Virus record (IMG/VR): IMGVR_UViG_3300027779_000014
Reading direction: 5' to 3' (one strand)
Length of the DNA: 64,000 nt
Origin: an uncultured virus (IMG/VR IMGVR_UViG_3300027779_000014)
Lineage: Duplodnaviria; Heunggongvirae; Uroviricota; Caudoviricetes
Of the stretch, positions 4,262 through 35,111 are shown piece by piece. The position numbers and the translations under genes are program-made. Under the pieces are notes generated by a model, which saw only the letters and a list, made by a program, of their open reading frames with translations, made no database searches and was not told the origin of the DNA. The stretch's first letter is position 1, and every line of letters starts with the position of its first letter.

Positions 4262-4268
4262 TGGTTAT

Positions 4269-6510: not shown

Positions 6511-6522
6511 TTACTTCTCCCC

Positions 6523-11155: not shown

Positions 11156-12469
11156 TCAAAAGAGATTTACTCGTGTGCTTCCAAGAGACTTTGTTCCGAA
11201 GAACTTAGCGTTACCTGTTGCTGCTGTATTGTTAGGTGACATAGCTAGAGCAAGGCTGTTGTTGCCGTGAACCATTCCCATTGCCGGTGCTGCTTGATTG
11301 TGCATACCGAACATTGCGTTGTTCTGTGTCATACCTAGACCGCCTAATGATGTCCCACTTAGAGGATTCAATGCTGCTAGTGATGATAGACCGCCAGCGA
11401 ATATTTCACCAGATGCTAAATCACTTGCCTTATCACCAATTCCGCCTGCTTCGATGTTTCGAATGAAGTCTGCTGCAATGATTAGAGATGTTGCTGTCAT
11501 TGCTGGACCTAAGAACTTCTTTGGGATTCCTTGCTTGCTCATTAGAGCTCCAAGTGCCCCAACAGTTGCCATGTCTAGCATAGCATCGAAAGCATTTACC
11601 AGATCAGGACCAACATAGTCGATACCGCCTACTGCGCTATCTACCATTGATGTTACACCGATTCTGTTCCAGACATTACCCTTAGCTACTGCTAGAAGTC
11701 CCATCATTCCCATACCTGCGAGAGCGAACTTAGAAGAAGCCATTAATGCATCAACTTGCTTACCTGGACTCATAACAGATGAAGATAGTGACTTACCGAA
11801 AGCCATCAATCCACCTACTGGGTCTAATTTAGTTGGTAGAGCGTCTGTTAGATTAACTGTTCCTGCCTTTACTGTTCTTCGCGAAGCCCTTCTCTTAGTT
11901 GAAGTTCTCTTAGTGGATTTTCGGCGTGTGCTTGTTCCACGGCGAGTTCTCCAGCCTTTCTTTGCTGCTGCGGATCTCTTAGCCTTAGTCATACGACCAG
12001 CGGACTTTTTCTTAGTAGATGCTCTCTTAGTAGTTTTCTTAGGAGATTTACGGGACCTTGCTGCTCTCTTTGCTGCATTAGATCTCTTAGTGGATGCTGC
12101 TCTGCGAGTTCTCCAGCCTTTCTTTGCTGCAGATGAACGCTTTGCTTTTGTACCTGTTTTCTTAGCAGGTGATCTCTTACTCTTCCTGGTAGCTGCGGCT
12201 TTCTGGCCAGCAGTGGAACGCTTTGCAGCGTTGCGCTTTCTTGTAGCTGCGGCTTTCTTGCCTGCAGCGGAACGCTTTGAAGCGTTGCGCTTTCTTGTAG
12301 CAGCGGCTTTCTTTGCCGATGCTGATCGTGAAGCCTTAGAGCCTCCACGACGGACTGATTTTCTAGCGGTTGTCTTCTTAGTCTTTCTTGTAGTAGTCTT
12401 TCTTGCCAATTTATTCACCTTCTTTCTATTGTTAGGAGGGTTGACTAATACAAGTGTTCCCTGACCCAT
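11156..12469 (-). CDS. Lys/Arg-rich histone-H1-like core protein fused to a hydrophobic C-terminal domain
   Basis: Repeats KRSAAGKKAAATRKRNA and KRSAAAKKGWRTRR over ~190 aa, followed by hydrophobic helices; N-terminal LVLVNPP. Confidence 0.75.
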   Translation of the reverse strand: MGQGTLVLVNPPNNRKKVNKLARKTTTRKTKKTTARKSVRRGGSKASRSASAKKAAATRKRNASKRSAAGKKAAATRKRNAAKRSTAGQKAAATRKSKRSPAKKTGTKAKRSSAAKKGWRTRRAASTKRSNAAKRAARSRKSPKKTTKRASTKKKSAGRMTKAKRSAAAKKGWRTRRGTSTRRKSTKRTSTKRRASRRTVKAGTVNLTDALPTKLDPVGGLMAFGKSLSSSVMSPGKQVDALMASSKFALAGMGMMGLLAVAKGNVWNRIGVTSMVDSAVGGIDYVGPDLVNAFDAMLDMATVGALGALMSKQGIPKKFLGPAMTATSLIIAADFIRNIEAGGIGDKASDLASGEIFAGGLSSLAALNPLSGTSLGGLGMTQNNAMFGMHNQAAPAMGMVHGNNSLALAMSPNNTAATGNAKFFGTKSLGSTRVNLF

Positions 12470-12552
12470 TGACTAGGGGTCTTAACCATCCGCATATAAC
12501 CAGACTGTAGTACACAGTATATACTTCGGCTACTATGTAGTCAAATGTCGTG

Positions 12553-12567
12553 CGTAAGTATCTTACG
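12553..12567. promoter_or_regulatory. Perfect inverted repeat CGTAAG-TAT-CTTACG, candidate RHH operator
   Basis: In the divergent promoter region just upstream of an Arc-like RHH gene. A second inverted repeat, ACTGT-N5-ACAGT, lies at ~12504-12518. Confidence 0.5.
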
Positions 12568-12586
12568 GTAAACACCCTTAGACTGA

Positions 12587-12787
12587 TTGATGAAGAAGAA
12601 GGAGAGCAGTGTAATATCGCTTAGAATACCGGCAAACATCATGGAAAGGGTGCGTCAGCAGGCACAAGAAGAAAATAGAACCATCAATAATCTATTACTA
12701 ACATATATTCAATTGGACATAAACTTCACCACTAGCGAGCATAAGACCAAATTAGAAGGGAAAGATAGAACAAGGCGACGCAGGTAA
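12587..12787 (+). CDS. Arc-like ribbon-helix-helix protein
   Basis: VISLRIPANIMERVRQQAQEENRTINNLLLTYI; the start may be ATG 12590. Confidence 0.8.
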   Translation: MMKKKESSVISLRIPANIMERVRQQAQEENRTINNLLLTYIQLDINFTTSEHKTKLEGKDRTRRRR

Positions 12788-12796
12788 GGTGTTTGT

Positions 12797-13558
12797 ATGG
12801 ATTCACCTTCCCACCTAGTTAAGTCGATGGAACCATTGTATGATGGCATTCGTGGAGGCCACCTAGTAATTGTTGGACAGACTAGATATGGAAAGAGTAC
12901 GGCTGCAGAACAATTCTTCTTGAATGAGAGTCTTTTTGATGGCAGAAAGAGTGCTACGCATATCTTTATCGACACTAAGCACGATGATGCGTTAATCAAG
13001 CATGGATTTTACGCTAAGACTATTACGGACTTGGATTTTTACCTTAATATGAAAGTTAAGCGGGTTGTTTATCGGCCACCTGGTACTTCTGAAAGGGAGA
13101 AGCACCTTACAGACATAATTAACCTCTTATTCAAGAAGAAAGAAAAGCGTCGTTACAAGAAAGCGGTCTACGCGATATTCATAGATGAGGTTCAACTATA
13201 CGCAAGAAAGGGATCAAGGCATGAAGGACTTGAGAGGTTATCTACGACTGGTGCTGGTAAAGACATACACGGTATTGTCATTGGACAAAGATTGCAAGAT
13301 ATACATGAACAGACATTATCTCAATGTAATAGCCGGATGGTTTTCTTCATGCAAGAAAGACCTGATTATCTGAAATCCAGAATGATGACTGAATTAATTG
13401 ATTGGATGGACTGGCTTAAGGAGAACCCTTACTATTTTGGATTCCAGACTCTTGCTTCTGTCGATTGGCAACTTCACGCTCCTGTCCCTTTACCGCCCAA
13501 GCCCATAGATATCTACGCCGAGATGTTCGCCCCTCCGCCTTCAAAAAGAAGATTTTGA
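12797..13558 (+). CDS. FtsK/HerA-superfamily genome packaging ATPase (A32/P9-like)
   Basis: Walker A GQTRYGKS, IFIDTK, Walker B IFIDEVQ, IGQRLQDI motif; 253 aa with no TM domain. Confidence 0.8.
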   Translation: MDSPSHLVKSMEPLYDGIRGGHLVIVGQTRYGKSTAAEQFFLNESLFDGRKSATHIFIDTKHDDALIKHGFYAKTITDLDFYLNMKVKRVVYRPPGTSEREKHLTDIINLLFKKKEKRRYKKAVYAIFIDEVQLYARKGSRHEGLERLSTTGAGKDIHGIVIGQRLQDIHEQTLSQCNSRMVFFMQERPDYLKSRMMTELIDWMDWLKENPYYFGFQTLASVDWQLHAPVPLPPKPIDIYAEMFAPPPSKRRF

Positions 13559-13594
13559 ACCAAAATGGTAATATTGATTTGAATGCGGGTCCAA

Positions 13595-15097
13595 TCAAGA
13601 CATCTCATCCGTAAAGGTGTCCTGTATAGGTTTTGATTTTTGTATTTCATCTGTTCTAAGTAACGAGATTGCATTTCCTGTTGCTGTATTCATTGAAGTT
13701 AACACTAATGTTAGCGGTTCTACTACCCAAGTCATATCACAAACTTTCTCACCCATTGGATCAACACCTAACTCGGGATTCATTGATAATTCATATAGAG
13801 TATCAATGATGTCCATTGATGCGGTTTCTGCCAATGTTATTGGTATTACTAATAGAGATTCGGCAAATGCCATCTTTGCTAATTCTGCTCTAGAGGACTC
13901 CATTGGTTCAGAATTCTTGATTGCATGACACATTCTTGCTTGTATGGAACCGGCACCTGGAACTGTAAGTGGATTCTTGGCTGTGATGTAAGCTACTCCA
14001 ATAGCGTCATCCATTGCTCTGGAAAATTCTGCGGCGGTTTGCTCAGTTGGTGCTGGAAGTATAATTGAGGCTACTTGGATATTTTCCCCTACCACTTGAA
14101 TATAGGGGTTGGGACCTTCTTTACCTCTAATAGTACAGGTACCAGTACCTAGTTCATCTTCCAATATATCAGATAGATCTGCGATTACTTCACCATTAGT
14201 TGCTTTTGCAATCCTGTGCATGTCACTCTTTCTAATATTGCGAACTGCTAAAATTCCTTGTCGCCTAAAGTGTTGTATGGCCCTAGAGTCCATTCCTTTC
14301 TGGCACAGGACTATTTTTATTTCTTGTTCCTCTATTGCAGAAAGCCTTTGTTCCATGTATGCTTGCTGTACTGCGGCTATTTGGGCTATCTTGTTAGGAT
14401 CTGACAGAGATACATTTGCTTGAGGCGGCCCTAGTTCTTCATCGAGTAACAGTATTTTACCAGTGAATTTTTCTTCATCAGTAGGATATGCGCTTTGTTT
14501 GAGTATTACTACGCCCTCTATTAGTTCTGCATCTTTAGGATCTCCTGGCCTTCCGATTAGTTTGATATTATCTGGAGTGGCTGCTTCTGCGGCTCTGGCG
14601 CAAATATCACTCAATACTTCGATATAAGCCTCTGCTGATTTACCTGTGATTGCTGTTTGTGCTACCTTTTTGGCCGCATCATAGGGGGTATCTGCTGCTG
14701 ATGCGTTTTTCTTTGCTGTTTCTGTCGCAATTTCAAGTGCTTTTCTATATCCCCTCGTTATAGAGTTAGGTTGTACGCCACGATCAATAAGTAGGTCTGC
14801 TTGATGAAGAAGTTCTCCGAGAAGAATAACTGTACTTGTAGTTCCATCGAAAACGGATTCTTCCTGTGCCTTTGCTACTTGGGCTACTATTCTAGCAACT
14901 GGATCCCTATCTGCTCCCTTCCTTAGTATAGTTGCCCCATCATTAGTTACTAGGTGCTCACCCATTTTATCGACTAGCATTTTATCGAAGCCTAATGGCC
15001 CCAGAGTTGATCTGACCCTATCTGCAACTTCGCGGGCTTTACCTACGATGTGTTTTTGGGCAGCTCTTCCCCTCAGAGTTTCGAATTGTTCTTCCAT
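13595..15097 (-). CDS. ths: Group II chaperonin (thermosome subunit)
   Basis: STLGPLGFDKMLVD, VTNDGATIL, DGTTSTVIL, TAITGKSAE, VLCQKGMD, PGAGSIQ. Confidence 0.95.
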   Translation of the reverse strand: MEEQFETLRGRAAQKHIVGKAREVADRVRSTLGPLGFDKMLVDKMGEHLVTNDGATILRKGADRDPVARIVAQVAKAQEESVFDGTTSTVILLGELLHQADLLIDRGVQPNSITRGYRKALEIATETAKKNASAADTPYDAAKKVAQTAITGKSAEAYIEVLSDICARAAEAATPDNIKLIGRPGDPKDAELIEGVVILKQSAYPTDEEKFTGKILLLDEELGPPQANVSLSDPNKIAQIAAVQQAYMEQRLSAIEEQEIKIVLCQKGMDSRAIQHFRRQGILAVRNIRKSDMHRIAKATNGEVIADLSDILEDELGTGTCTIRGKEGPNPYIQVVGENIQVASIILPAPTEQTAAEFSRAMDDAIGVAYITAKNPLTVPGAGSIQARMCHAIKNSEPMESSRAELAKMAFAESLLVIPITLAETASMDIIDTLYELSMNPELGVDPMGEKVCDMTWVVEPLTLVLTSMNTATGNAISLLRTDEIQKSKPIQDTFTDEMS

Positions 15098-15114
15098 GAG
15101 CCTTTCAATCGTTG

Positions 15115-15125
15115 TTGCCGTTTGA
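15115..15125 (-). promoter_or_regulatory. Class-B promoter motif TCAAACGGCAA
   Basis: 17 nt before the thermosome ATG (15097). Confidence 0.75.
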
Positions 15126-15131
15126 AGGTGC

Positions 15132-18100
15132 TTATCTTTTTGTAGAGCGTATTTGTTCGGGAGACATATGATAGCACTTGAATTTCACATTATACTCAGG
15201 TATTTCCTCGTTTAATGCATTCACAATATCCATAGTCCTATCTCTAAGGTGTGCATGCCCATCTGTTTCCATGATATGTTCTTGTTCTGATTCTTGGAAT
15301 ACTTCTTCTATGTCTTTTTCTAGGTCGATAATCACATCTGCTACTTCTTCTGCCTTCAAACGGTTGCTCTTGGCAAAATGAAACCAATCAATTCTATCTC
15401 CCATTACTGTGAAGTGGTCTTGGATGCCGTGTATTGTAAATAATCCATGATAAACTTTGAAATCGTCTGGGCTAGTTTGACTGGGTTCCCAAACTCTAGG
15501 ATGAGTATGGAAGAATGCTGTCGCTCCTTCTAGTATGTATCCTGAAACTGCTGCTTCGTTCAAATGTCTTGCACCTGGCCTGAAATATAGGCGATTCCCT
15601 TTCATCCAACCAGATGCTTCTCCGAAGTCTTGGACTTGTTCTGCTAATTGTAAGAATAGTGCCTTAGAACCAATTGGGCCTTTCATTTTGGTCGACTTGA
15701 ATTTCTTTTTTTCTTCTTGCTTAGTCATAGTTTCTCCGAAATCTTCGATGTATTCTACTCCGTCAAGATTTAGAGTTATCGGATTTAGTTTGATTGGGTT
15801 CCTTTTCTTTTTCTTTTTCTTTTTCTTGTTCTGGTTATTGTTCTGGTTATTGTTCTGGTTATTGTTCTGGTTCTTGTTCTGGTTCTTGTTCTGGTTATTG
15901 TTCTGGTCCAGGTTATCAGTAGGAATAGTGGGGTGTTTCCTTCCAGTTAGGCTTTTGATAAGGTCCCTGCTAGTAATACTGAATACATTTTTTACTTGGC
16001 TTTTTCCTTTTTTCTGAGGCTGCCCTTGCTTTTTGATGAGGTCTTGCTTATCCCGAGATTGCCCTTGCTTATCCCGAGGCTTATCCCGAGATTGCCCTTG
16101 CTTATCCCGAGGCTTATCCCGAGGTTGCCCTTGCTTATCCCGAGGTTGCCCTTGCTTATCCTGAGTTGGTGGGCCGCTATTCGGGCTTTTCTTTTCTTCT
16201 TCGAACCATTTTTCAAAACTCTCTGTTTTGCCAGCCTTCAAATCTGCGAAGATATTAGGGGGTATTCTTGCCCCTTTCATTTGACTTAATGCCTTTACTG
16301 CTTCGGGATGTAAATGATCTCTATGTTCTCTGCTGACTTTGGCCGGATTGTTTTTGGGTTCCTTAGATTGAATTTTTTCTGCTACCTTTATCACATCGTC
16401 TCTTACTGCTGCTTGATTTTCCTCTGAAAGAAGGTGTGCGCTGTACAGATAAGAGGTATGCGGCCTAATATGTAAGGAGGGTTTTCCACCAAATCGAGTT
16501 TTTAGTGTGTACCACCCTCTTTCCAAATTCTCTTTCACCCATTCGTAGCCTAGTTTTTCTAATTCGAAGAATGCTAGCGAAGTATCATAGAACCTAGCAG
16601 GTATTTCTAAGGTGTATTGTCTTAGTAACATACCTTCTGGCGGATTGATGCTAATATCTATTGCATCACCTAGAGATTTGGAGATTTCTTTGTAGTGCTT
16701 GTGTAAGTTGGATGCGTTGTTGATGAATATAGCCAGTGCAGCACCTTTCTGGGCATGGTGCATTAGCCTGTTACCAAGTGGATCTATATCATCCACGGTA
16801 TCTGTAGTTATTTCAAGTTCGGAATTTTCTGAAAGGAATAGTGCAACTCTTTGGGCGATTAATTGATGACTACTTCCCATTGATTCAGGAGATGACACTA
16901 TGATATCTGAGGCATTGTTAGAATTAGCCGTAAAGCCAATAATCTCTAAGTATATCGAGCCAGGGTCAGATATTTTGTGGCCTTTGGCTTCTAATTCCCT
17001 TATCAGTTGGTTTTTGATTATATGCCCTTGCCCAATAGATTTGATATTGAATGTCTTTAATGGATTACGCCATGATTCACCCAATAATGTATCTGCTGTG
17101 AATATGGTTTCTCCTTCGTCAGATTTTCTAGTTTGTATTGCTTGTCCTTGAGTTTTAGGGCCGCCAGTTTTAGGATGAGTGTTCCCCATCTTAGCTCCTT
17201 TATGTATTGCGTAATTGTATCTTTTCTTATTTTTAATCTCGAAAGGCATAGTTAGGTGTTTTTTTGCTGCTACTTTGAAGTTATCTAGGTCTTTCTTTGC
17301 AGTTGTAGTTGAAGTGTAGCCTACGGCAAATATGATTGGCTCTTTTTTTGGTTCAATTTTGTAAGTATTATCTTTAGGATATCCTTCGTGGATCCATTCG
17401 GGCATATAGAATACCTTTCGGCCTAAATCATCTTTTTGAGGTTTAATCGCTATTCCTGATTGAAGAGGTGATATTGGATTCTCCTTAGTACCGAATAAAC
17501 TGTCCTTAGGAAGATACATCTTAGGGAATGGAGGGTTGTCGTATTTCTTGTTGAAATGTTCTATCTTACCCGCCTGACTGGTCTTTACTTTCAAATCGCC
17601 CGTTAGAGAGAAAACCGCTAGGAAATGGTCGAAACTTTTCTTGACGGTTGGTTTGTTCCATAATATCCACTTTGATAATGCGCCTGCTGTTGTGAAATCA
17701 TCCCAATCTTCTCTTTTCCCATGTCTTGCCAAATAGTCGGTTCTGCGTCTCTTATCATTATGTATAGTATAGTCGTTGTAGTGCTTGGCTCCAAAGTGGG
17801 TAGTTTTCTTCCTTCCATCGGGGAATGTGAATACTGCTCGTAGTTTCTTGTCTTTCTGTGGAGATCCGTCAATCACAACATGGACTCGGCCCTCTGCAGG
17901 AGGATTTGATTTTGTGGTTGGAACATACCTCATGTGATAGTTAGTGAATCCATTGTATGATTTTTGCGCCCATCCGTCTTTTGCTACTGTTCTTTTTGCT
18001 ACTGGCGCTCTGGTCACTTCTTCACCGCATGATTCACAAGTGTAAGTTTTCTTGTCTAATTTTTCTCTTTTTCCTGTACCGGATAGAATCCATGAAGGAT

Positions 18101-20045
18101 CTATTGAATCCCATTTTGCTACTAACTGCGCCTTTGGCTTCTTACATCCTTCATGTGTAGCGTACCAATACCATTCGCCAGGTACAGACATTGCAGGAGG
18201 ATTTGTTATAGCCATCTTTGAGATTATTTTAGAGTTGATGTTTGATACTGTTTTCTTGAGTTCGCCTGTTTTGTTCTTTATTATTAGGTCGAAGTTCATG
18301 TCTTTGTAATTTTTCATCATTTTTATTCCTGACTTAATTCTTCGTTCAACTTTCCATTGAGGTTCCCCTCTTGATTTGATTATGTATTCCCATTCTTCTC
18401 TCGGCTTATCTAATAGTAGGAATATTGAGAATATATCTGCTATTTCAGCAGATCTCATTTTCTTCAATGCATCGAATGACTGATCTATAATTACTATTGG
18501 TGTTGCTGTCAAGTCTTGGATTCTTCTTGCGTACTTATCACCATAGTTCTCGAATACGAGGTCAGTCCCATTGGCAGATGTGAAATCACCTGCTTCTCTC
18601 ATTTTATCGAACTTAGCTTGACTAACGGTTTTGATGTCTATGCCTTGCTTCTCGTTCTTGCGCTTTTCCCTAGTAGTATATGTAGGGGCGATGGAGGCTT
18701 TATTTCCAATTAACTTCTTGAGGGCTTTTTGTATAGTGCTTTTACCCATCCCCGATGGACCTGATAATGATACGATGATTTGTTCAGGCATCATTTCTTC
18801 TAGTGGAACAAGAGGATTCTTGATCCAATCCATATCCTCGTTGAGAGGAGAGATCCAGAATGAATCATAGAGTGGGTGGACTTTGCCTCGTACAGATAGG
18901 GATGAGTCGGCTAGAGGTTCTGGAGGAGATTCTGAAGCCCCCGTCTTTGTCATTACTCCTCTTGTCTCTATGCGTAGTCGGGGTTCTGACTTCTTAGAGG
19001 GAAAATTGGCTAGTATTCCATAAACCGCCCTTATTGCAGTCAAGGCGTAGTAGTGCTTACCGCCCGTTTCTGCGGAGATGATGTATTCGGGTTGATTCTT
19101 GATTGGTTTTCCATTCTTGAGGACTTTGAATCCAGCAGTGCGCCTGAACATATTGATTCGGACTAGATTGCCCAATTGCATGTGATCTCCTTTGTTCACC
19201 TTATGGCTTCTGATTTGCCAGGCATTAGTATCTCTGGTTGCATTCACATAAAGTTGCGGCTTTCCATCGGAGTCCACTGAGACAACGGGTTCGAATGCGT
19301 AGTGGTTGGTGACATCTTCACCTTCCATGACGAATCTCCCCTTCTTAGTGGGTGATACCTTTCGTGGTTGGACGGTGACAGGTGGGTTGAAGGAAATCGT
19401 AGGAGATATTAGATCTGCATACAGCAAGTGCGGGTGCTTTATTGCAGCATTACCTGGAAAGAACTGTGAGTCTTTTCTGCCTGTTGGGTTACTTGAGTAG
19501 GCTGGGGTCACTTCGCGTCCGTCAAGATGTCCAATGAGTTCGACTGACTTGATTGCATCCCCCTTCCAGATGCACCCACTGGCTACATCCCATCCGTAGT
19601 ACCAAATGAAGTCCTTATTCATCCGTAAGTCCCATTGATAGGGGCATATCTCAATTCCACTGTAGTTCTTCGCCACTTGCTGCCAGTCAATTGTTTTAAT
19701 TTCTGCTCCGGAATGATACTGACCGCCGATAGTGCCGTAGTTCTCGGCAAAGGCATACATGTCCTCGGGTGTTCTGATTATCAGCATTTTCTCGAAGTTG
19801 ATTTTGATTTCGTACAGGTATTCGTATCTTCCCACCATTCCTCCTTTCATTGTTTCATCTTCGGAGATGAAATCCTTCCAAGTATTACCTTGGCCTTGGC
19901 CTTCACATCCATACCAGAGTCCTTTCGGTTTCATGGCATTAGAGATTGGATCTGCGGGCTGCGGGTGTTCGTGCCGGAACGCTTCTGGCCTCCACTTCTC
20001 TCCGGTGTAGAAGGTTCTGCTGACTGTCACTGAATCTGCCCCCAT
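15132..20045 (-). CDS. Giant modular protein: conserved viral domain, guanylate kinase, Zn ribbon, DUF5754-like, low-complexity tract, JAB/MPN metallopeptidase-like
   Basis: GK: SGPSGMGKST..YTTREKRKNEKQGID (~18204-18812). DUF5754-like: KTTHFGAKHYNDYTIHNDKRRRTDYLARH..AGALSKWILW (~17538-17900). JAMM-like: GEASG..FHTHP..SPDD (~15132-15779). The true start may be GTG 20030, overlapping the upstream TGA. Confidence 0.85.
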   Translation of the reverse strand: MGADSVTVSRTFYTGEKWRPEAFRHEHPQPADPISNAMKPKGLWYGCEGQGQGNTWKDFISEDETMKGGMVGRYEYLYEIKINFEKMLIIRTPEDMYAFAENYGTIGGQYHSGAEIKTIDWQQVAKNYSGIEICPYQWDLRMNKDFIWYYGWDVASGCIWKGDAIKSVELIGHLDGREVTPAYSSNPTGRKDSQFFPGNAAIKHPHLLYADLISPTISFNPPVTVQPRKVSPTKKGRFVMEGEDVTNHYAFEPVVSVDSDGKPQLYVNATRDTNAWQIRSHKVNKGDHMQLGNLVRINMFRRTAGFKVLKNGKPIKNQPEYIISAETGGKHYYALTAIRAVYGILANFPSKKSEPRLRIETRGVMTKTGASESPPEPLADSSLSVRGKVHPLYDSFWISPLNEDMDWIKNPLVPLEEMMPEQIIVSLSGPSGMGKSTIQKALKKLIGNKASIAPTYTTREKRKNEKQGIDIKTVSQAKFDKMREAGDFTSANGTDLVFENYGDKYARRIQDLTATPIVIIDQSFDALKKMRSAEIADIFSIFLLLDKPREEWEYIIKSRGEPQWKVERRIKSGIKMMKNYKDMNFDLIIKNKTGELKKTVSNINSKIISKMAITNPPAMSVPGEWYWYATHEGCKKPKAQLVAKWDSIDPSWILSGTGKREKLDKKTYTCESCGEEVTRAPVAKRTVAKDGWAQKSYNGFTNYHMRYVPTTKSNPPAEGRVHVVIDGSPQKDKKLRAVFTFPDGRKKTTHFGAKHYNDYTIHNDKRRRTDYLARHGKREDWDDFTTAGALSKWILWNKPTVKKSFDHFLAVFSLTGDLKVKTSQAGKIEHFNKKYDNPPFPKMYLPKDSLFGTKENPISPLQSGIAIKPQKDDLGRKVFYMPEWIHEGYPKDNTYKIEPKKEPIIFAVGYTSTTTAKKDLDNFKVAAKKHLTMPFEIKNKKRYNYAIHKGAKMGNTHPKTGGPKTQGQAIQTRKSDEGETIFTADTLLGESWRNPLKTFNIKSIGQGHIIKNQLIRELEAKGHKISDPGSIYLEIIGFTANSNNASDIIVSSPESMGSSHQLIAQRVALFLSENSELEITTDTVDDIDPLGNRLMHHAQKGAALAIFINNASNLHKHYKEISKSLGDAIDISINPPEGMLLRQYTLEIPARFYDTSLAFFELEKLGYEWVKENLERGWYTLKTRFGGKPSLHIRPHTSYLYSAHLLSEENQAAVRDDVIKVAEKIQSKEPKNNPAKVSREHRDHLHPEAVKALSQMKGARIPPNIFADLKAGKTESFEKWFEEEKKSPNSGPPTQDKQGQPRDKQGQPRDKPRDKQGQSRDKPRDKQGQSRDKQDLIKKQGQPQKKGKSQVKNVFSITSRDLIKSLTGRKHPTIPTDNLDQNNNQNKNQNKNQNNNQNNNQNNNQNKKKKKKKKRNPIKLNPITLNLDGVEYIEDFGETMTKQEEKKKFKSTKMKGPIGSKALFLQLAEQVQDFGEASGWMKGNRLYFRPGARHLNEAAVSGYILEGATAFFHTHPRVWEPSQTSPDDFKVYHGLFTIHGIQDHFTVMGDRIDWFHFAKSNRLKAEEVADVIIDLEKDIEEVFQESEQEHIMETDGHAHLRDRTMDIVNALNEEIPEYNVKFKCYHMSPEQIRSTKR
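15800..16165 (-). repeat. Coding low-complexity repeats (DKQGQPR/DKPR, NQNN, poly-K)
   Basis: cttgcttatcccgagg units at ~16040-16165 and ttgttctggtta 12-mers at ~15825-15908. Confidence 0.9.
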
Positions 20046-26527: not shown

Positions 26528-26539
26528 ATCTACAACCCC

Positions 26540-26740
26540 TCAATCATCATCTCTTGCCCTTCCAATGGCTCCGGATATTGTTTGTATGATTAGTAGGTTT
26601 GCTGCCCCTAATGCTATTGCATAGAAGCAAAACCTTAGTGGTTGCGAAATAATACCTATGGGACCATATAGCGCCCTATCGAATTCGTCTGATACATTTT
26701 TTTGTATCGCATTTACTTCTTTGCCAAAGTCAAATTCCAT
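26540..26740 (-). CDS. Small membrane protein
   Basis: Hydrophobic FCFYAIALGAANLLIIQTI; abuts both neighbours. Confidence 0.65.
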   Translation of the reverse strand: MEFDFGKEVNAIQKNVSDEFDRALYGPIGIISQPLRFCFYAIALGAANLLIIQTISGAIGRARDDD

Positions 26741-27340: not shown

Positions 27341-27344
27341 TTGC

Positions 27345-30300
27345 TCACCTCATTTCGTATTTTGCACCACAGTCGCTACACTTGTAGATCCTACCGTTTT
27401 TCATTAGTTTTACTTCACTACCACATGGCTTGCTTCGCTTGGTTTTTTTGTAAGCGCATTTGAGAGTAGGGTTTTTCTTTGCTGACTTTGCCTTTGTGTA
27501 TTTTCCTTTAGCCCACTTTTGCTTCCCACATTTATCGCACTTATCTCCTAATGCTTTGATTTTCTGCTTGTGGCCGCAACCGCCTCTTTTCTTATCGCAT
27601 TCTGCAGTTATTGGGTTTGACTTTGGGCGATTTCCTCCGAGTGTTGTCCTTGGTGGGCGATTTCCTCCGAGTGTTGTTCTTTCACGATTCCCTCCGAGTT
27701 TTTTTATTATTGATATATCAAAACTTGTAGATCCGCATCTAGGGCAGCCTTTACTAAAGAATCCTGAATACCCTGGGTCGCTTGGTTCCAATGGTGTTAA
27801 CTCATCAGATTTGAACGGTCCGTGTCCATTCTCACATCTATATCTGCTACTATCGATCTCCTCCTGTGTTACAATCATCCTTTCTTCGTCATGATTAGGG
27901 TTTGGTAGTGAGCGATTTCCTCCGAGTGTTGGAGGTTTAGCCATCTTGATGGCGTCTGCAGTAGCGATGAGAGTCAGAGTAACTGTTTGCGAAATCATCT
28001 CGTAGTCTACTTTCAAGTTGGCAACAGCGTTGCCTCCTTTTGCTTTTGCTCTGTTAGAGAGTTCTTGTTGCATACTTGCTATAGCCATAGCCATTCTTTT
28101 TTCGGCCATTGATGTTCTTCCACCAATAAGTCCTCGGTATATGCCTTGAACTGTCTCGCCAATATCTTTCACGAAGTTTCTTCCGATTTGGACTTCGGAT
28201 GTAACCATTCCTTTGTTAGTGAACTTAGATGATGGCGTACCTGCGTAAATAGGGAGAATATTTGCTGGGTTGGATAAGGGGCTACCTCCCTCTGGAGCCA
28301 GATGGAATGGATAGGTGAAAGTGCCACCTAATCTATCAAAAGATACTGAGTTGAATTCCTTATTTCCTTGCCCCTTTAATTTAATTGTAGTGTTGAGCCT
28401 AGTTTGCTGATCTATTTCTAAGATAGTATAAATTTCTCCCTTTTTCAATTTTGGATATTTGTCATTTCCATTATATCGTACCATTTCATTCACTGCAAAG
28501 GGAGGGTTCGTCTTAGATCGTGCCATAGTCATTGCCTTTGACCCCATGAAAGAATCTATTGATACTACTTTGTACCCTTTCTTTTCAGCTTCGCCAATCG
28601 AACTAGGAGATACTAACAAGTAATTCTTACCCTTTACCATAACTTTGTAATCGAATCCCTCTTGTAACAAAAGTTCCCTCTTGGATACTGCATCATCTTT
28701 ATCTGATGCTTTTACTACAGAAGGCGGTTGCATTGAGAGTCCGGCTCTCTTGGTCTTACTAGAAAGTTTAAACCAGGTCCTTCTTTGTTCTTCAGCGTCT
28801 TTTAAAACTGCGGCTCCCACCTTAATATCTGAATAATATTTATCGAGTAGTTGAATTTTGTCGATTAATAGATTCGCTGCAACTGCAACATCATCTTCGT
28901 CAAACCCTTGTGTGCCACTAAAACGCCATAATTCTATTTTATCCTCATTTGTCATTACGCTTGTTACAAAATTATGTAGTTTTTTTTGCTCTGCGGTACC
29001 GCTTCCCATTTTATCGAATGCATCTTGATTTTCATCAACCTTTTTTGTTAGTATTTCTATATAATTATCCAATTTATTTTTTTCTGCCTTTTCTTCCTTT
29101 CGTATGGCTGCTTTTTCCTTTCTAACTTCTGCTGCTGCTTGTTTCTTCAATAACTCAGGTTCGTTCTTTTCGCTCTCTGTCATCCATTTGATATCTTCAC
29201 CTTCTAGTTTATGCCACAACCGGCCTAATTCCTCTAATTTTCCGTGTATTTCTCTTGCATCATTGGGCGCTTCGGGTCCGTCATAAACTGGAATTTTTTT
29301 CTTTTTTTCCTTGTCGGCCCTGTCTAGTACCATCCTTTTTGTTTGAATGTTGGCTTTCCAGTATTCTTTTGATTTATTCAGGGGGGCTATGACCTTATTG
29401 GCTTCTGCTACTTTTTTAGTGAGTATATTGAAAATGTATTCCGCGTGTGGTGTGTTAAAGGGGTCGCCAAGTTCTTCTGGGCCGATTCCTGGTGGTAAAA
29501 TATTTGCAGGCGGATTTCTTATTATTCCTCTGCTCGTCTTTGTTTTTCTAACTGTACTTGGAATTCTTGTAGGGTCGTGTGGGTCGAGCATTGAATACAG
29601 TAACATTGTTTCTGATTCATTTAGTTCATAATCATACATTGCTTTAGATCTTGTTGCGATCATATATAGTAATTCCAGGGCAGATGGCATGGAATTACCT
29701 TTCATCACATCTGAGTATTCCTCTAAGATCTGGAATGTTGGAATTACCCACCTACTATCCCACCCTTTAGGTTGTTTAGTAAATCCAGAATTGAATAGAG
29801 GCACTAGGAAGAATGTACTTTTAGTTTTTAGTTTTTCACTTTGTTTTGATAAATTGTATTCAGCCAAGGCTTTATTTCTTTCCAGTTTATCAGGATGAGA
29901 TTTCTTTGTAGGTTTTACAAGTCCCATTGGCCTTGACCCTACATTTATAGGGAATGCTAGCCCTCTTGACACTAATTCATCCATTACTTTGAAGCGCCCT
30001 GCGGGTTTCTGGTCTTCAATTTGGAATATCTTTTGGAATGATTCGCTGTCCACTCTTTTTTTGTTTGCTATATCTAACGCACTATTGACATTCACATTTA
30101 AATTCTGGTCTCGCATTGGCATAAGAGGTATGGAAACTCCCACATCCATAACTCCTCTATCAGATAGGAATGCTTGTTGGGAAGCCATTAGTATTGATTT
30201 GGCTGCTGCTGCGGTATCGTGATTGTGTGCCCCTAAGAATCTGTATGCGGCTTTCTTCAAATCTGCCTTGACGAAGGCGGGATCTGATCTTGTTTTCTGA

Positions 30301-31388
30301 TTTAATGGTTCACCAGTTAGTAGCCTCAACCACCATTTGTCCCAAAGTTCAGGTTTTAACACAGTAGTTTTACTTTCTATATCTACTATGTAGTGTACTA
30401 CACCTGCTTCTATCATATACTCGGCAGTAGGAGTAAGAGCATTCAGGAACTTCTTGTCAAATCCAGGGAACAAATCAAGTTCTTCCATTCCGCTTGATAG
30501 AGAAGGAAGGATTTCAGCCATGAATGGCGCGTTTCCCCTTCTTATTTGTGTATAAGCATTCACCATTCTTTTGAAGTCGGTTACAGTCGTATTGCTTCTG
30601 TCAATGTATCTATGGTGTCCGGCAAGTACCGCTTCCATCAATGCTTCTTCTGTAGCACCCATTGTTTTTACTTGCTTTAATATTTCATCTACGGACATTC
30701 CAGGGTATTTTTTCTGGACGAACTTGACATATTTCTCATATATCCTTCCTCGGATTCTTCGGCGAAGCTCTTTTGTCTGTCGAGAAGATAGTTTTTCAGA
30801 TGACGATGGTTGTATTCCAAGTACTTGAGCCCTTATTTTCTTGTTCATTTCACCAGTTATCTTTATTGGAGCGCCATGTGGTACTCCCTTTCCAGTTTGT
30901 GCTTCGAATGATCCTCTGAATGGCCCTCTCTTTCGCATCATCTCTGCTAGAGTTAATTTTCCTAGGTCTGGATATAGTGATTCCATCAATTCTCTGTTTT
31001 CGTACATCTCTACTGCAACAGTTGACTTCCTGACATCTTCCCATTCACTTTCTGGATTTAGTTTGATTGAATCTGTAGTTGGTAGTATGAAAATTTTCTT
31101 TCCTGCTGCTACTCTTTGCATTGCTTCAACTATTCCTATCTTTTTGTTTACATCAGCAGAATTCGCGAAGATTACTGGACCGAGGTCACGGTATCTCTCA
31201 GGACCCCATATTCCACCGTGGCCTTTTTTCCGTAACTGATCTAGCCATCCAGATGTTAATGTGTGAAATGCCACCATTCCTTCTTTCTTTACCTTTCCAG
31301 ATTGCTTTTCAGAAATTACTCTCTTACCATCTTTATCGACTTGGTTTAATGGATTGATTTTTCTTTGTTCATCTCTATTCATTCGCAA
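27345..31388 (-). CDS. Giant modular protein: SH3-like, YbjQ/UPF0145-like and three Zn ribbons at the C-terminus
   Basis: YbjQ-like GMVTSEVQIGRNFVKDIG...GGRT...AKAKGGNAVANLKVDYE...ATADAIK (~27935-28265); C/H-rich knuckles CENGH..CPRC, CDKKRGGC..CDKC, C..C..CSDC; TLGGNR repeats. Confidence 0.85.
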   Translation of the reverse strand: MRMNRDEQRKINPLNQVDKDGKRVISEKQSGKVKKEGMVAFHTLTSGWLDQLRKKGHGGIWGPERYRDLGPVIFANSADVNKKIGIVEAMQRVAAGKKIFILPTTDSIKLNPESEWEDVRKSTVAVEMYENRELMESLYPDLGKLTLAEMMRKRGPFRGSFEAQTGKGVPHGAPIKITGEMNKKIRAQVLGIQPSSSEKLSSRQTKELRRRIRGRIYEKYVKFVQKKYPGMSVDEILKQVKTMGATEEALMEAVLAGHHRYIDRSNTTVTDFKRMVNAYTQIRRGNAPFMAEILPSLSSGMEELDLFPGFDKKFLNALTPTAEYMIEAGVVHYIVDIESKTTVLKPELWDKWWLRLLTGEPLNQKTRSDPAFVKADLKKAAYRFLGAHNHDTAAAAKSILMASQQAFLSDRGVMDVGVSIPLMPMRDQNLNVNVNSALDIANKKRVDSESFQKIFQIEDQKPAGRFKVMDELVSRGLAFPINVGSRPMGLVKPTKKSHPDKLERNKALAEYNLSKQSEKLKTKSTFFLVPLFNSGFTKQPKGWDSRWVIPTFQILEEYSDVMKGNSMPSALELLYMIATRSKAMYDYELNESETMLLYSMLDPHDPTRIPSTVRKTKTSRGIIRNPPANILPPGIGPEELGDPFNTPHAEYIFNILTKKVAEANKVIAPLNKSKEYWKANIQTKRMVLDRADKEKKKKIPVYDGPEAPNDAREIHGKLEELGRLWHKLEGEDIKWMTESEKNEPELLKKQAAAEVRKEKAAIRKEEKAEKNKLDNYIEILTKKVDENQDAFDKMGSGTAEQKKLHNFVTSVMTNEDKIELWRFSGTQGFDEDDVAVAANLLIDKIQLLDKYYSDIKVGAAVLKDAEEQRRTWFKLSSKTKRAGLSMQPPSVVKASDKDDAVSKRELLLQEGFDYKVMVKGKNYLLVSPSSIGEAEKKGYKVVSIDSFMGSKAMTMARSKTNPPFAVNEMVRYNGNDKYPKLKKGEIYTILEIDQQTRLNTTIKLKGQGNKEFNSVSFDRLGGTFTYPFHLAPEGGSPLSNPANILPIYAGTPSSKFTNKGMVTSEVQIGRNFVKDIGETVQGIYRGLIGGRTSMAEKRMAMAIASMQQELSNRAKAKGGNAVANLKVDYEMISQTVTLTLIATADAIKMAKPPTLGGNRSLPNPNHDEERMIVTQEEIDSSRYRCENGHGPFKSDELTPLEPSDPGYSGFFSKGCPRCGSTSFDISIIKKLGGNRERTTLGGNRPPRTTLGGNRPKSNPITAECDKKRGGCGHKQKIKALGDKCDKCGKQKWAKGKYTKAKSAKKNPTLKCAYKKTKRSKPCGSEVKLMKNGRIYKCSDCGAKYEMR

Positions 31389-33858
31389 TGCCCCCTTTTG
31401 ACGGTGCTAAGGAGAATGGCCCTACCCTTTGTCCTCCAGGTCGCCTTCCTTCATATTGCATTACGCCATTTAATCCAACTTGAGACACATAGCACACGAT
31501 TTTATCGTATTTTAATCCAGTAGATTCGAATAGTTTGGAAACTCCTCTGTTGTAATTTATATCTTTCGACTTCAATACGGCATCTTTGAATATTTGGCCG
31601 CCGCCATCAGTGAGTGTTTTCTTGAGTTTTATTTCTCCGAAGTCTTGTTCAATTCTTTTTAGTAGTAAGCTAGTTTCTTTAGAGTATTTTGAGCCTTTTT
31701 TTGCAGATATTTTGCCTGTGGCTAGGTCATGCTGAATTATCATCCTAGGTAGTATGATCCTGTGAGGGACAAGATTGTTATTGTCTTTTCTTTTACCGTA
31801 AATTATCTGTATCTTTGGGTTTCCTTTATCGACTTGAGTACCAGTTTTCATTACTGTATCCATGACTTGTGCCTTAGTGTTGTACACCTTTCCTTTCCAC
31901 CTGTATGTTTTATTTTTTTTGTTATAGACTGGTTCTTGGCCTGTGGCGTAGTGTTTGTATAAATCATTTAGACCTAGTTGATCCCTTACTTTCTTGATAT
32001 ATTTTAAGTTTTTATTTGTCTCAGTCAATGTTTTCATATTTATTTGACTTCTTGGAACTAAATCAATTGCTATTGCCTTACCCCTTACAGAAGGGTTTTT
32101 CTTCACATTCGCTCTAAGAGTTTTTTGCCCTAGGTTATCTTCCAGGGCAGTTGCAAGATCATTGTCGCCTAGTTCATCTATCTCTTCCAGACCCTTGCTT
32201 CTTGACGCATCTGTGTAGGCGTCTGATATATCTGACCCTCTGCCTAAATCTTCTACGAATAAATCTATTTTTGGTAGGAAAATATTATTACCAAATTTGT
32301 CTAACTTCCCGAAATCACCTACACTGTACCCATCATCAGATGGCCTTGCAACTACCGTAAGTCTGCCTTTAGGCACTAAGTAATCTTCACCTATTCCTTT
32401 AGATAAGTCTGCATGTATTATAAATCGTATGGAAATTGTTTCTTTCGGCCAGTTTAATGCAATTCCTTCAGATAGTTCCTTTAGGCCCTCCTTACTTTTT
32501 ACATCCCTACCTGATATCGCTGCTTCGAATAATCCTGACCAATTAGTAGTCAGTGCTAATGATTTATTTTCTGATCCATAAACGGCTGCTGTCAGACCAA
32601 GAGTTCCATTATTCTCCTTTGACGCTAGTTTCATTTTTACGATTTTAGCTACTTTGTCATAGGTCATTTCAATATTAGTTTGATTTGCTGCTTTCATTGC
32701 CGCGTGCATGTTGGATTTTTTCCAACCAGTTTTGAATGGTGGCATAGAAGTGTCTAGTGAGACAAGAAGTGGTGAAGGAGAACCTTTCAAGTATGTGTTC
32801 TTAGAGTCTCTTTGCGCGTTATTGTTATTGTTTTTGTTGTTTCGGCTTCGTGAATTACGAACTATGGCCCTATTTGCGGTTCTGTTTCCCTTAAAATCAA
32901 GAGTTGAAGCTGTGATTACAAACATATCCTTCAAACCTGATTGGAAAGTATTCATGTTCAAGCCGTATTCGCCGTTGAGACTTCTCAATCTCATCCTAGC
33001 TTCTTCAATCTCTCCTCTCTGGTAAGACCCGACTGTACTTTTAGCCAGTTCAAATGCTTCGAATGTCCTACCTGCAGATGCGTTTTCAAAGTCTTCGCCT
33101 CGATCATCTTGTGCTTGGGCTAATGCTACACTGAATTTCATAATATCTCCTTCCGTCACTAGTGCTTTCAAAGTTATCAGTGATTGGTGTTCTACACTTG
33201 TAAGTGGTTCGATTGAGGGATATATTTGCTCACTGATTTCTGGGTCATCTTGAGTCATTTGTGCTACAGTGTACCTATTGTAAGAGTTAATCGGCAGATT
33301 GTTTAGTAATCTAATTTGTAATCCCCTTAAGTCGTGTATTGTTAACCCCGCCATTGTGTCCATTCTCTTAGAGAAATCCGGACAATTTTTTCTTATTTCT
33401 AGAGTCCAAGCATGAGCGTCTTTTATTTGTGTGCCTGATTTTAACTTGGATCTTTCATTTACTCCAGTGATCATCCAATACAGTAAGTCACCAATAATTG
33501 CTGCATTAAAACTATCATAATTTTCTGGTACTTGAGATAAGTAGCCAGAGTGATCCCTGTTTAATTCCCCCCAGTCATTTGCGAAAGCGAATAATATATC
33601 CCTAGATAAGATAGCGATATCTTCTGTTTTTGAGTATCTTCTGATTTGTTCTTTATTTACTGAGTTTATGAGTGAATAAACATCTAACAAATCCGGATAT
33701 TTACTTACGGTGGAAAGAGTTCCTTTTCTTCCTTCATCTTTTCTTAGGGTGGTTGTTTTAGTTCTTCCACCTTCTTTTGAACCTAAAGGCCCTGATGAAT
33801 CGTAGTATCTTTCACTGTCACCAACAGGGTTTTGTATTATTTTTTTACGGCTTGCCAT
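31375..33858 (-). CDS. Large hypothetical protein (827 aa) with basic C-terminal module
   Basis: Long ORF, N-terminal MASRKKIIQNP, Lys-rich module after KKNPSV. Confidence 0.8.
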   Translation of the reverse strand: MASRKKIIQNPVGDSERYYDSSGPLGSKEGGRTKTTTLRKDEGRKGTLSTVSKYPDLLDVYSLINSVNKEQIRRYSKTEDIAILSRDILFAFANDWGELNRDHSGYLSQVPENYDSFNAAIIGDLLYWMITGVNERSKLKSGTQIKDAHAWTLEIRKNCPDFSKRMDTMAGLTIHDLRGLQIRLLNNLPINSYNRYTVAQMTQDDPEISEQIYPSIEPLTSVEHQSLITLKALVTEGDIMKFSVALAQAQDDRGEDFENASAGRTFEAFELAKSTVGSYQRGEIEEARMRLRSLNGEYGLNMNTFQSGLKDMFVITASTLDFKGNRTANRAIVRNSRSRNNKNNNNNAQRDSKNTYLKGSPSPLLVSLDTSMPPFKTGWKKSNMHAAMKAANQTNIEMTYDKVAKIVKMKLASKENNGTLGLTAAVYGSENKSLALTTNWSGLFEAAISGRDVKSKEGLKELSEGIALNWPKETISIRFIIHADLSKGIGEDYLVPKGRLTVVARPSDDGYSVGDFGKLDKFGNNIFLPKIDLFVEDLGRGSDISDAYTDASRSKGLEEIDELGDNDLATALEDNLGQKTLRANVKKNPSVRGKAIAIDLVPRSQINMKTLTETNKNLKYIKKVRDQLGLNDLYKHYATGQEPVYNKKNKTYRWKGKVYNTKAQVMDTVMKTGTQVDKGNPKIQIIYGKRKDNNNLVPHRIILPRMIIQHDLATGKISAKKGSKYSKETSLLLKRIEQDFGEIKLKKTLTDGGGQIFKDAVLKSKDINYNRGVSKLFESTGLKYDKIVCYVSQVGLNGVMQYEGRRPGGQRVGPFSLAPSKGGIANE

Positions 33859-33872
33859 TTATTCAACCCCTA

Positions 33873-35111
33873 TTACCAATTAGAAAATCCCTTATCGTAT
33901 GTTGAAGGCCTCATTACCTTTTTTCTCCCGCTGAAAACTTTTCCTAAGAAGTAGAAGCCAGCAACTACAGTGGCAGTAGCCACTAAAGCAGTCTGATTGG
34001 GATTTTTGTCTGTCCAACCGCCCATAGGAGTTGAGTATAGGGCTTCATTTTTCTTGGCGTGCATGGCTGCTAATTTTCCAGCCGCTTTATGCTTTATTGC
34101 GCCATGTGTTTCTGCATTCACCTTATGTTCATTAGGATTATTTCTTGTATCGAATGGAGTAGATAACTTAAATGAGTTGGAAACAGCACCATACGGACTA
34201 GGGCCCCTATAGATAGCATTCTCATTACCACTAACTCTGAAACCATCTCCATTATTAGTTGTTGAACCTAATAAGGAAATCCTTTGTTGTCTTTCTGACT
34301 CTACGAACATTCCGCCCGCTAATGATGTTGCACCTGCTTCTCTGTTTAGAATTGATAGTGCCCTATCGAGTACTCTATCCATTTGTTCTAAGATTACATT
34401 CGGGTCATGTGCGAATGTTCCGATTGAGTTTACTTGTTCGCTGAATACTCCATTGTTTCCTAGAAGAGATTCTATTTCTTGGTAATCCCCGTATGGGATC
34501 AAAGATTGTTTTTTTGCAGACTTAGCTTCGGCTAATATCATACCTTTAGTAGTCATCCTGTTTGCTATTTCGCCTTTCATCTGTGTTTGTTCTGTTTTTT
34601 TGCTGCTGGCAACTAGAGTTTGTTCTAGTTCCATGAGTGCTCCCCTGGCCGATGATATTGCTATTTGCTTCTCTTCTACAGTCCCAAATACAGGTATTTT
34701 TGATAACGCGCTATCCCTGGCACGATCTATTGTCCTCAAATCATGTTCACTCATCCCTTTTATTGCTGTTGCGTGGATTTTGAGTAGTTTGTTCCAACCA
34801 TCAATTAGGCTCTCATTTACTTCATTTAATGGCATTGCTCCTGATTGAGTTGCTCCTAATAAATACAAGTCGTGCTGAGAGTTGTGAGTAAGGGACATAT
34901 TCGATAAAATGGTCTCTATTTCTAATTTTGCATCTAACCAGAGCGACTCTTGCCCCATTAAGTCTGCACCCTCAGATTGTATAGCCCATTCTGCGACTAT
35001 GGCCTCTACAGTCGTCATCCTATCTGTTCCAATATACCTGTCTACACCTAATCTTGCTGCAATATTGCTGACTTCCGACATCCTTTTTTCGATTACCGTA
35101 TTACTTGCCAT
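33873..35111 (-). CDS. Helical protein with C-terminal membrane anchor, first gene of a ~20-kb operon
   Basis: TM segment ALVATATVVAGFYFLG followed by a basic tail; lies downstream of the class-C promoter. Confidence 0.75.
   Translation of the reverse strand: MASNTVIEKRMSEVSNIAARLGVDRYIGTDRMTTVEAIVAEWAIQSEGADLMGQESLWLDAKLEIETILSNMSLTHNSQHDLYLLGATQSGAMPLNEVNESLIDGWNKLLKIHATAIKGMSEHDLRTIDRARDSALSKIPVFGTVEEKQIAISSARGALMELEQTLVASSKKTEQTQMKGEIANRMTTKGMILAEAKSAKKQSLIPYGDYQEIESLLGNNGVFSEQVNSIGTFAHDPNVILEQMDRVLDRALSILNREAGATSLAGGMFVESERQQRISLLGSTTNNGDGFRVSGNENAIYRGPSPYGAVSNSFKLSTPFDTRNNPNEHKVNAETHGAIKHKAAGKLAAMHAKKNEALYSTPMGGWTDKNPNQTALVATATVVAGFYFLGKVFSGRKKVMRPSTYDKGFSNW

Follow-up and report, generated by a model that had tools for sequence, protein, structure and literature searches.

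We analysed a 64,000-nucleotide stretch of DNA from an uncultured virus (IMG/VR record IMGVR_UViG_3300027779_000014), hereafter called the window, and in particular the very large proteins encoded between its positions 11156 and 35111. Comparison with homologues indicates that two of these giant proteins are chains of swappable enzyme modules, the joints of which are marked by a short peptide ending in Asn-Pro (NP), and that the NP phenomenon is real and lineage-wide. Recognition by a viral protease seems the most likely mechanism, and we give about an even chance to the proposal that the NP peptide is a site recognised and cut by a virus-encoded enzyme of this kind. New here are the NP junction code, the invariant LVNPP tag and second start of a core-like protein, and a candidate for a capsid protein similar to that of SPV1 (Sulfolobus polyhedral virus 1).

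Modules exchanged at NP joints

A search with the ATPase of the window led to G001, a colinear record of 128,784 bp with terminal repeats. G002 (127,570 bp, complete) and the partial G003 are colinear too, and the distant relative G005 was located via its capsid protein. Six marine sequencing runs contain at least 0.93 of the window, and RNA runs just 0.05-0.11 of its words. As a contig of run X2 spans positions 16133-20158, an assembly chimera is excluded for most of the giant gene. In what follows, genes lie on the minus strand unless marked (+).

The largest protein, of 1637 amino acids (aa) (15132-20045), has 12 NP and 35 homologues with shuffled module order. Its first module, residues 1-185 (19491-20045; phrog_8582, of unknown function), is private to the window and stands ahead of NP186. 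It is followed by a conserved 34-residue leader (19389-19490), which is N-terminal in giants of the window's clade and ends at the NPP site NP220 (19383-19388). Further along, a guanylate-kinase module lies between NP410 and NP615 (18204-18818), a Zn-ribbon module between NP615 and NP714 (17907-18203; 97% identical in G001) and a DUF5754 module between NP714 and NP837 (17538-17906). The guanylate-kinase and DUF5754 labels had been given in a preliminary description of the window made from its letters alone, and Pfam confirms both (residues 426-604 and 723-775). Homologue comparison delimits unnamed modules between NP837, 856, 994, 1134, 1233 and 1416 (15801-17537), the last of them being of low complexity with Q/N/K repeats. 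After NP1416/NP1421 the chain closes with a JAB/JAMM-like metalloprotease module (15135-15785), recognised by its invariant residues and by an Atlas lead.

Three other large proteins belong to the same block. The 1274-aa protein (20027-23851) consists of an NP-free core of 838 aa, a single seam NPP839 (21332-21337) and an ATP-dependent ligase module, a label supported by a PHROG match. The 1347-aa protein (27345-31388) has a core followed by YbjQ and Zn-ribbon modules at NP625, 961, 1040, 1163, 1258 and 1306; its YbjQ domain was confirmed by Pfam (1059-1146), whereas the proposed SH3-like domain gave only a weak match to an unnamed PHROG family (E 0.006). In the 827-aa protein (31375-33858), NP10 and NP588 are motif-like and both are retained in G001, and an NP is found near the likely start of this protein in 4/4 relatives.

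The exchange of modules at NP, which the preliminary description had proposed, is seen both in the comparison of homologues and in the analysis of breakpoints. Five modules of the window are 70-97% identical in G001, and seven G001 segments without a window counterpart start and finish at NP; one G001 insertion lies exactly at NP220. The 1274-aa protein and its 985-aa orthologue in G001 diverge at the same NPP, where the ligase stands opposite an unrelated tail, and the ligase module begins at NP in further giants too. Modules 961-1039 and 1163-1257 of the 1347-aa protein are missing in G001. The Zn-ribbon module NP615-NP714, present in 4 of 19 giants, has another downstream neighbour in G001. 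Module 1-185 is not found in close relatives and was joined ahead of their N-terminus at NP186, a site retained in 0/7 homologues, and the leader that is thereby internal in the window is internal in L052 as well. Guanylate-kinase, ligase and YbjQ modules occur in differing genes across relatives; the first of them sits in the neighbouring giant gene in G002, G003 and G004.

The homologues were retrieved with the C-terminal region of the giant, and 19 of 36 sequences were retained after near-duplicates had been removed. Pieces of these 19 giants, cut at NP, recur as modules in differing orders. The internal ends of high-identity matches give 146 homology breakpoints. Of these, 60 are no more than 3 residues from an NP, where 8.0 were expected, and 88 no more than 5 residues (12.4 expected); NP ranked first among the dipeptides tested. 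Only 3 of 260 NPs fall inside 50 Pfam or PHROG matches, against 44.9 expected (homologous domains being counted repeatedly), which agrees with the earlier claim that NP delimits modules. As many as 12 different modules may precede a given module family, which nevertheless retains its family-typical starts and ends, and there is nearly one site per junction regardless of the neighbouring module. The same arrangement is found in the distant G005, whose giant of 1874 aa has 15 NP (4.9 expected) and places HD, guanylate-kinase, YbjQ and DUF5824 matches each between two NPs.

At the DNA level, contigs of a close relative in run X12 part from the window at 19388, where the codon of Asn220 begins, and again at 17889, six codons into the NP714 module, and they skip 19478-20036, which corresponds to the private first module. 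In runs X8 and X12 a loose contig end lies at 16345, inside the codons of NP1233. Not every loose end is at a seam, exceptions being those at 17626 and 17717 and several in X7 and X8. Short tandem peptide repeats stand just ahead of seams at 15800-16150 (Q/N-rich) and 27620-27960 (TLGGNR-like), and assemblies break at the first of these.

The number of NPs is in itself less telling. All 12 NP sites reported for the 1637-aa open reading frame (ORF), five of them NPP, are present where the preliminary description, which gave the last base of the Pro codon, had placed them. They compare with 5.2 NP expected from composition (shuffle p 0.004) and 0.29 NPP. For the 1347-aa ORF, six of the eight sites had been named, along with KINP; 3.4 NP were expected (shuffle p 0.02), and two of the eight are NPP. 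The single NP reported for the 1274-aa ORF is indeed the only one (2.4 expected). As NP is over-represented everywhere, with 131 against 94.1 expected (1.39x) among the 254 non-structural ORFs that were called mechanically in two complete relatives, the raw count is a weak signal. The ten ORFs of interest contain 35 NP (17.8 expected) and 9 NPP (0.87 expected), the remaining 49 ORFs of the window 31 NP (25.6 expected) and no NPP (1.19 expected), and the 891-, 827-, 412- and 199-aa ORFs show no enrichment by count. The proposed excess over background therefore holds for NPP and for sequence context, whereas the raw NP excess is modest, and the signal is carried by NPP, context and position. Across the 19 non-redundant giants, which as homologues are not independent of each other, there are 218 NP (76.4 expected) and 96 NPP (4.5 expected), the top dipeptide and the top tripeptide.

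The preliminary description had also pointed to three NPs in the thermosome subunit (13595-15097; Pfam), and these are incidental. They are kept in 6-13 of 30-33 homologues and have no context motif, and thermosomes of relatives have 0-4 NP each. The motif marks only part of the proteins in the structural block.

Some further observations concern the modules. Those of relatives include PAP2, NUDIX, HD, csx3-like and GTPase domains. In the G001 giant L026, residues 539-707 and 941-1099 are variable modules, one being zincin-like with HExxH and the other carrying an HGT motif reminiscent of ADP-ribosyltransferases. In G005, a free-standing gene of 193 aa (L090:869-1450) has no NP and is a homologue of a module that NPs delimit in L036, which would be expected of modules captured as genes. 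Directly behind the core-like gene, locus L044 encodes a 382-aa protein (15054-16199 (+)) with 10 NP (2.8 expected) and no NPP, which has no counterpart in the window.

The NP site and its possible readings

The motif can be written as hydrophobic-Lys-x-Asn-Pro-(Pro). In 360 non-redundant sites (from 469 in 64 ORFs), position -3 is hydrophobic (I 17, P 13, V 11, L 9%), Lys occupies -2 in 41% and a second Pro follows at +2 in 42%. Lys or Arg at -2 is found in 50% of 431 giant contexts and 8% of 127 control contexts, and PP in 43% and 8%, respectively. Information is thus located at -3, -2, 0, +1 and +2, which resembles the P4-P2' site of a protease.

This motif is read as peptide and not as DNA, since all synonymous codons are used: Asn is encoded by AAT (190) and AAC (170), Pro by all four codons, and all eight NP codon pairs occur. 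No conserved bases were found at the seams beyond codon positions 1-2. An integron- or shufflon-type cassette array, or any other DNA recombination site, was ruled out by these free synonymous positions and by the rates of identical hexamers, which are 19% for adjacent and 17% for non-adjacent seams. For the same reason we regard as the least probable explanation that NP is a by-product, be it an in-frame recombination site, a Pro-Pro ribosome pause or a neutral fusion scar. Shared stretches of at least 10 identical nucleotides are slightly commoner in adjacent seams (3.8% of 395) than in non-adjacent ones (1.3% of 2374), one 27-nucleotide duplication was found, and relatives have a resolvase (found in G001). 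Against this, seam sites persist in proteins that are just 42-50% identical, and the second Pro is present in only 42%. A by-product as the sole cause thus appears largely refuted, while microhomology may carry some of the module exchanges.

Within the window's giant, 8 of the 12 sites are 88-100% retained on their better-covered side among homologues of less than 90% identity; for sites 837, 1233 and 1416 the figure is 54-67%. The flanks of the sites are no richer in disorder-promoting residues than other parts of the proteins (0.460 against 0.456). Hence the "linker" of the preliminary description should be understood as a short joint between modules and not as a long disordered spacer.

Because nearly every junction retains a full site whatever its neighbour, recognition with cleavage is favoured. 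The giant genes would then encode polyproteins, in which captured enzyme and binding modules are held in one chain. Each module would start with NP(P) and finish with the upstream half of the next site, and cuts at these sites, probably made while the particle assembles or afterwards, would release the separate products. Location in the virion is suggested by the position of the genes within the structural block. Cargo could be gained by recombination joining the upstream half-site of one module to the NP of another, with selection retaining whole sites. Cleavage could take place at either N|P or NP|x. The protease PPEP-1 cuts VNP|PVP (10.1101/2024.03.15.585006), and therefore a cut could also follow Pro.

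Cleavage without any protease is another, quite unlikely, explanation. The side chain of Asn would cyclise and break the Asn-Pro bond, with either a partner or the inside of the particle as the trigger. The motif has no fixed residues other than Asn and Pro, and Asn-Pro autocleavage is known for RsgI and reovirus mu1/VP5 (PMC10328401). However, the known cases need a specific fold, while here the same site stands between unrelated neighbours, and the preference at -3 and -2 suggests an external reader.

A different picture is offered by the protein ends. The 437-aa basic core-like protein (11156-12469) has an LVNPP tag (12434-12448) and an invariant hydrophobic C-terminus (11156-11200). Its NPP is present in 37/37 orthologous ORFs, and M1, L8, N10, P11 and P12 are invariant in the 24 aligned sequences. 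Each of 25 distinct N-termini has a second in-frame start 3-27 codons past the Asn, which is ATG in 24 of them and TTG (12409) in the window, where it is preceded by AGGTGA (12420-12415), resembling a ribosome-binding site (the whole element spanning 12407-12420). A match of at least 5 bases to an archaeal ribosome-binding consensus precedes 12 of the 25 second starts; the first starts have none (0 of 25), and among 3050 control positions the rate is 1.7%. The gene thus probably yields a tagged form and an untagged one that omits the tag. The preliminary description had noted several more NPs near N-termini; besides the LVNPP, IQNP has counterparts in relatives, whereas KINP is missing in the closest complete relative and FSNP survives in no more than 13 of 45 divergent homologues. 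Among 35 giants, the starts of which are unverified, 14 have their first NP within 10 residues of the called start, in some as Met-Lys-x-Asn-Pro.

Such minimal N-termini, together with the invariant core tag and the conserved start that omits it, would fit an optional address. They speak for docking without cutting, in which the motif binds a pocket on the capsid, on an inner membrane scaffold or on the chaperonin and thereby tethers the chain, uncut, together with a share of the core protein inside the particle. SPV1-like particles, with a protein layer and a nucleoprotein core (PMC8459092), would suit this arrangement. On the other hand, one or a few tags would suffice for docking, yet nearly each new junction has a full site, and the sites are short joints between folded domains instead of exposed long linkers. 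We therefore consider docking alone somewhat unlikely. Under the favoured reading, recognition and cutting by a viral protease, the N-terminal sites and the optional core tag suggest that the site may also serve as an address, bound before cutting.

Candidate enzymes and known systems

The preliminary description had proposed three proteases. Two of these candidates, the JAB-like module and a transglutaminase-like protein, were found in every genome tested and have invariant residues of catalytic type; the third is an LRAT-like protein, for which no counterpart was found in the most distant relative. Provided that the sites are cut, the JAB-like module inside the polyprotein has, in our estimate, a little less than an even chance of being the enzyme. 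The JAB/JAMM motif is E...HxH-x7-S-x2-D, and E56, H93, H95, S105 and D108 are invariant in 34/34 members, with a spacing of x9 in place of x7. An Atlas lead points to Prok-JAB (0.88). In 45 of 52 loci an NP lies 87-94 aa ahead of the HTH of the module, and in 31/31 loci where the module is not terminal another lies 125-133 aa past it (the loci are redundant). The module is present in G001, G004 and G005, genomes that were located through other genes, and two genomes found via the capsid protein contain both this module and the transglutaminase-like gene.

The transglutaminase-like protein (45561-46373) is, again provided that cutting occurs, a slightly weaker candidate. Its C175, H209 and E231 are invariant in 33/33 sequences, and the gene is present in G001, G002, G004 and on the second contig of G005. 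The window protein itself has no significant match to Transglut_core, but 12 of 16 profile-linked distant homologues match it at E<=0.05, and a hydrophobic C-terminal anchor is common among the distant homologues. The triad and these profile links place the protein in the transglutaminase-like superfamily. Searches of PDB sequences with the transglutaminase and capsid profiles gave nothing significant, and no match to the transglutaminase-like protein or to the ATPase was found among INPHARED phages. One homologue, P0093, is interrupted at the catalytic Cys by an apparent intein.

The LRAT-like protein (51540-52028; Pfam E 1e-4, below the cut-off) is a weak candidate. It is present in G001, G002 and G004; this query did not find it in G003, which is partial, or in G005, the assembly of which may be incomplete. 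As it was not found in G005, it was rejected as a universal protease.

In other members, the transglutaminase fold has carboxamide side chains as its substrates, and one may imagine transpeptidation, in which the enzyme cuts after Asn and transfers the module to an amine of the capsid, the membrane or another module, so that the cargo would be fixed covalently. The invariant Cys-His-Glu would be compatible with this. Moreover, in 14 of 35 giants the last NPP is followed by a conserved tail of 12-15 residues with Gly and aromatic residues at its end, which resembles a sorting signal that can be removed. This tail, observed on JAB-bearing giants (L030, L035, L043-L059) and missing from that of the window, is possibly a second address, a degron or a protease cofactor. 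We nevertheless judge transpeptidation very unlikely, as no acceptor was identified, the enzyme family is widespread with distant members that are not rich in NP, and the N-terminal sites would donate only 4-10 residues.

Several findings weigh against processing at NP by these enzymes. A site 4-10 residues from an N-terminus separates nothing useful when cut, and conservation of NP alone is not diagnostic, some NPs of capsid-like proteins being conserved too (18/19 and 10/11). Not all joints follow the rule: 25 of 146 breakpoints lie more than 15 aa away from an NP, NP1306 of the 1347-aa protein is SP in G001, a DUF7831-DUF5754 fusion in P0020 and P0028 has no NP at its junction, and the 838-residue core of the 1274-aa protein is devoid of NP. 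As for the enzymes, none of the 34 members of the JAB-like family has a Pfam JAB match, and no PDB profile match was obtained either. Distant transglutaminase homologues have 93 NP where 63.9 were expected, which is not above background. No conserved HExxH zincin was found in the window or common to G001 and G002, only the one variable G001 module having the motif, and a zincin or PPEP-type protease was therefore rejected. Finally, the work on polyvalent proteins (PMC5512222) proposes nucleic acids as the targets of some JAB domains, and the zincin-like MPTase described there is not conserved here.

Polyvalent proteins are the closest parallel in organisation. As presented in the same work (Iyer et al. 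2017, PMC5512222), they are chains of 2-15 unrelated, shuffled enzymatic domains in phages and conjugative elements, for which processing by an embedded peptidase as well as packaging and delivery have been proposed. The fusion and shuffling of many unrelated domains in one viral chain is common to both (PMC5512222, PMC9503650). A junction code, present here, is not mentioned in the searched text of PMC5512222 ('NP motif' and 'linker', 0 occurrences each), and the hosts there are bacteria with tailed phages or plasmids, whereas we deal with a tailless virus of archaeal type. The cargo seems to differ as well. It includes guanylate kinase, ligase, PAP2, NUDIX, HD, YbjQ and DUF5754/5824/7831, while ArdC-N, MutS-I, ART, MuF and methylase-helicase are absent from the Pfam matches of 23 + 14 proteins, most modules having no family match. 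Thus, the NP giants work like polyvalent proteins but are not classed as members.

In African swine fever virus (pp220/pp62) and adenovirus (pVII/pVI), a viral cysteine protease cuts at a repeated short motif; the sites are Gly-based, the order of products is fixed and the hosts are eukaryotic. One short motif at all joints and a basic core protein with a short N-terminal piece resembling a propeptide are shared with the present virus, which differs in its Asn-Pro sites and mobile modules, and no adenain-type protease was identified in it. In phage T4, internal proteins bear an N-terminal capsid-targeting leader of about 10 residues, which is first an address and is then cut by gp21. There, one leader is present per protein, unlike the site described here, which recurs at every joint. 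Neither an HK97-type head nor a prohead protease was seen in this virus. Lastly, the core tag contains VNPP, like the PPEP-1 substrate, and a protease can evidently read Asn-Pro-Pro; however, PPEPs are secreted HExxH zincins of Firmicutes (10.1101/2024.03.15.585006), and at our sites the second Pro is far from obligatory.

The virus and the possible meaning of the NP code

The candidate for the major capsid protein (8895-9488, 197 aa) gave a beta-sandwich AlphaFold2 (AF2) model with a mean predicted local distance difference test (pLDDT) of 60.5 from 74 sequences; an earlier model from 16 sequences had reached 32. Its best match is the single jelly-roll capsid protein of SPV1 (6oj0; Foldseek E 6.5e-4), and with VIA the two could be aligned at Z 7.8, with a root-mean-square deviation of 4.7 and 139 aligned, the next row having 6.4. 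The model, with this moderate match, makes the protein a candidate SPV1-like single jelly-roll major capsid protein. Portogloboviridae (SPV1, PMC8459092) thus provide the best structural capsid match, and their basic nucleoprotein and membrane proteins fit too, unlike the genome size (20 kb against 128 kb here) and the ATPase, thermosome and polyproteins of the present virus. The small P-loop ATPase (12797-13558 (+)), which we take to be A32-like, is a candidate packaging ATPase with weak AAA matches and a PHROG terminase-ATPase match over 170 residues.

Other genes at the left end were observed as well. An open-ended ORF of more than 1400 aa with short repeats (1-4265), the G001 counterpart of which has 2989 aa, is likely a spike or fibre. 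Two adjacent paralogues of 455 and 259 aa (5143-7302), about 28% identical, are candidate vertex or minor capsid proteins; the shorter is 92% conserved in G001.

Pfam matches of the thermosome and of an RNA polymerase A'' homologue point to marine group II archaea, which we presume to be the host; 2 of 75 homologue names are Euryarchaeota and Poseidonia, and some giants carry Marinimicrobia bin labels. The polymerase homologue (53458-56115 (+), 885 aa) has long insertions and counterparts in G001 and G002 at 25-49% identity. PolB is absent in both of these complete close relatives (2/2). G005 encodes PolB, a complete fused subunit A of RNA polymerase (1618 aa), a thermosome, the same capsid gene (loci L087-L089) and, on a second contig, MCM. 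It is unusual for a virus to have a single RNA polymerase subunit but lack PolB.

By its gene set the virus resembles magrovirus group D. The consulted passages of two studies (Philosof 2017, PMC5434244; Xu 2023, PMC10160649) left the nature of this group open, identified no morphogenetic block and do not mention polyproteins. Shared are the marine habitat, thermosome, resolvase, RNA polymerase A homologue and lack of head-tail genes, whereas G001 and G002 have no PolB; the likeness is one of gene content and not of compared sequences. Satyavativiridae were rejected as tailed and unrelated (PMC13108676). Transglutaminase, protease and JAB are not mentioned by Yutin 2018 (PMC5894146), and no description of the NP motif or of the lineage's capsid was found in the literature covered, which excluded subscription journals.

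In its widest form, which we hold to be improbable, the proposal would be that a large group of tailless prokaryotic viruses, including magrovirus group D, uses the NP peptide as a plug-in code. Any captured gene with this peptide on both sides would be directed to the particle and cut out and, most boldly, also covalently ligated there by a transglutaminase-like, asparagine-specific viral sortase.

Processing of polyproteins at a repeated site is textbook knowledge for eukaryotic viruses. In the literature searched, neither such processing in an archaeal DNA virus nor freely reshuffled polyprotein modules have been described. Asn-Pro is a bond that most proteases avoid. If the sites are cut, the virus would possess a protease reading Asn-Pro, and a simple rule would predict the domain boundaries of about 180 module families, the majority of which lack annotation. 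For its part, the candidate capsid protein offers an answer to the question of the nature of the capsid-less 'group D magroviruses' of marine group II archaea.

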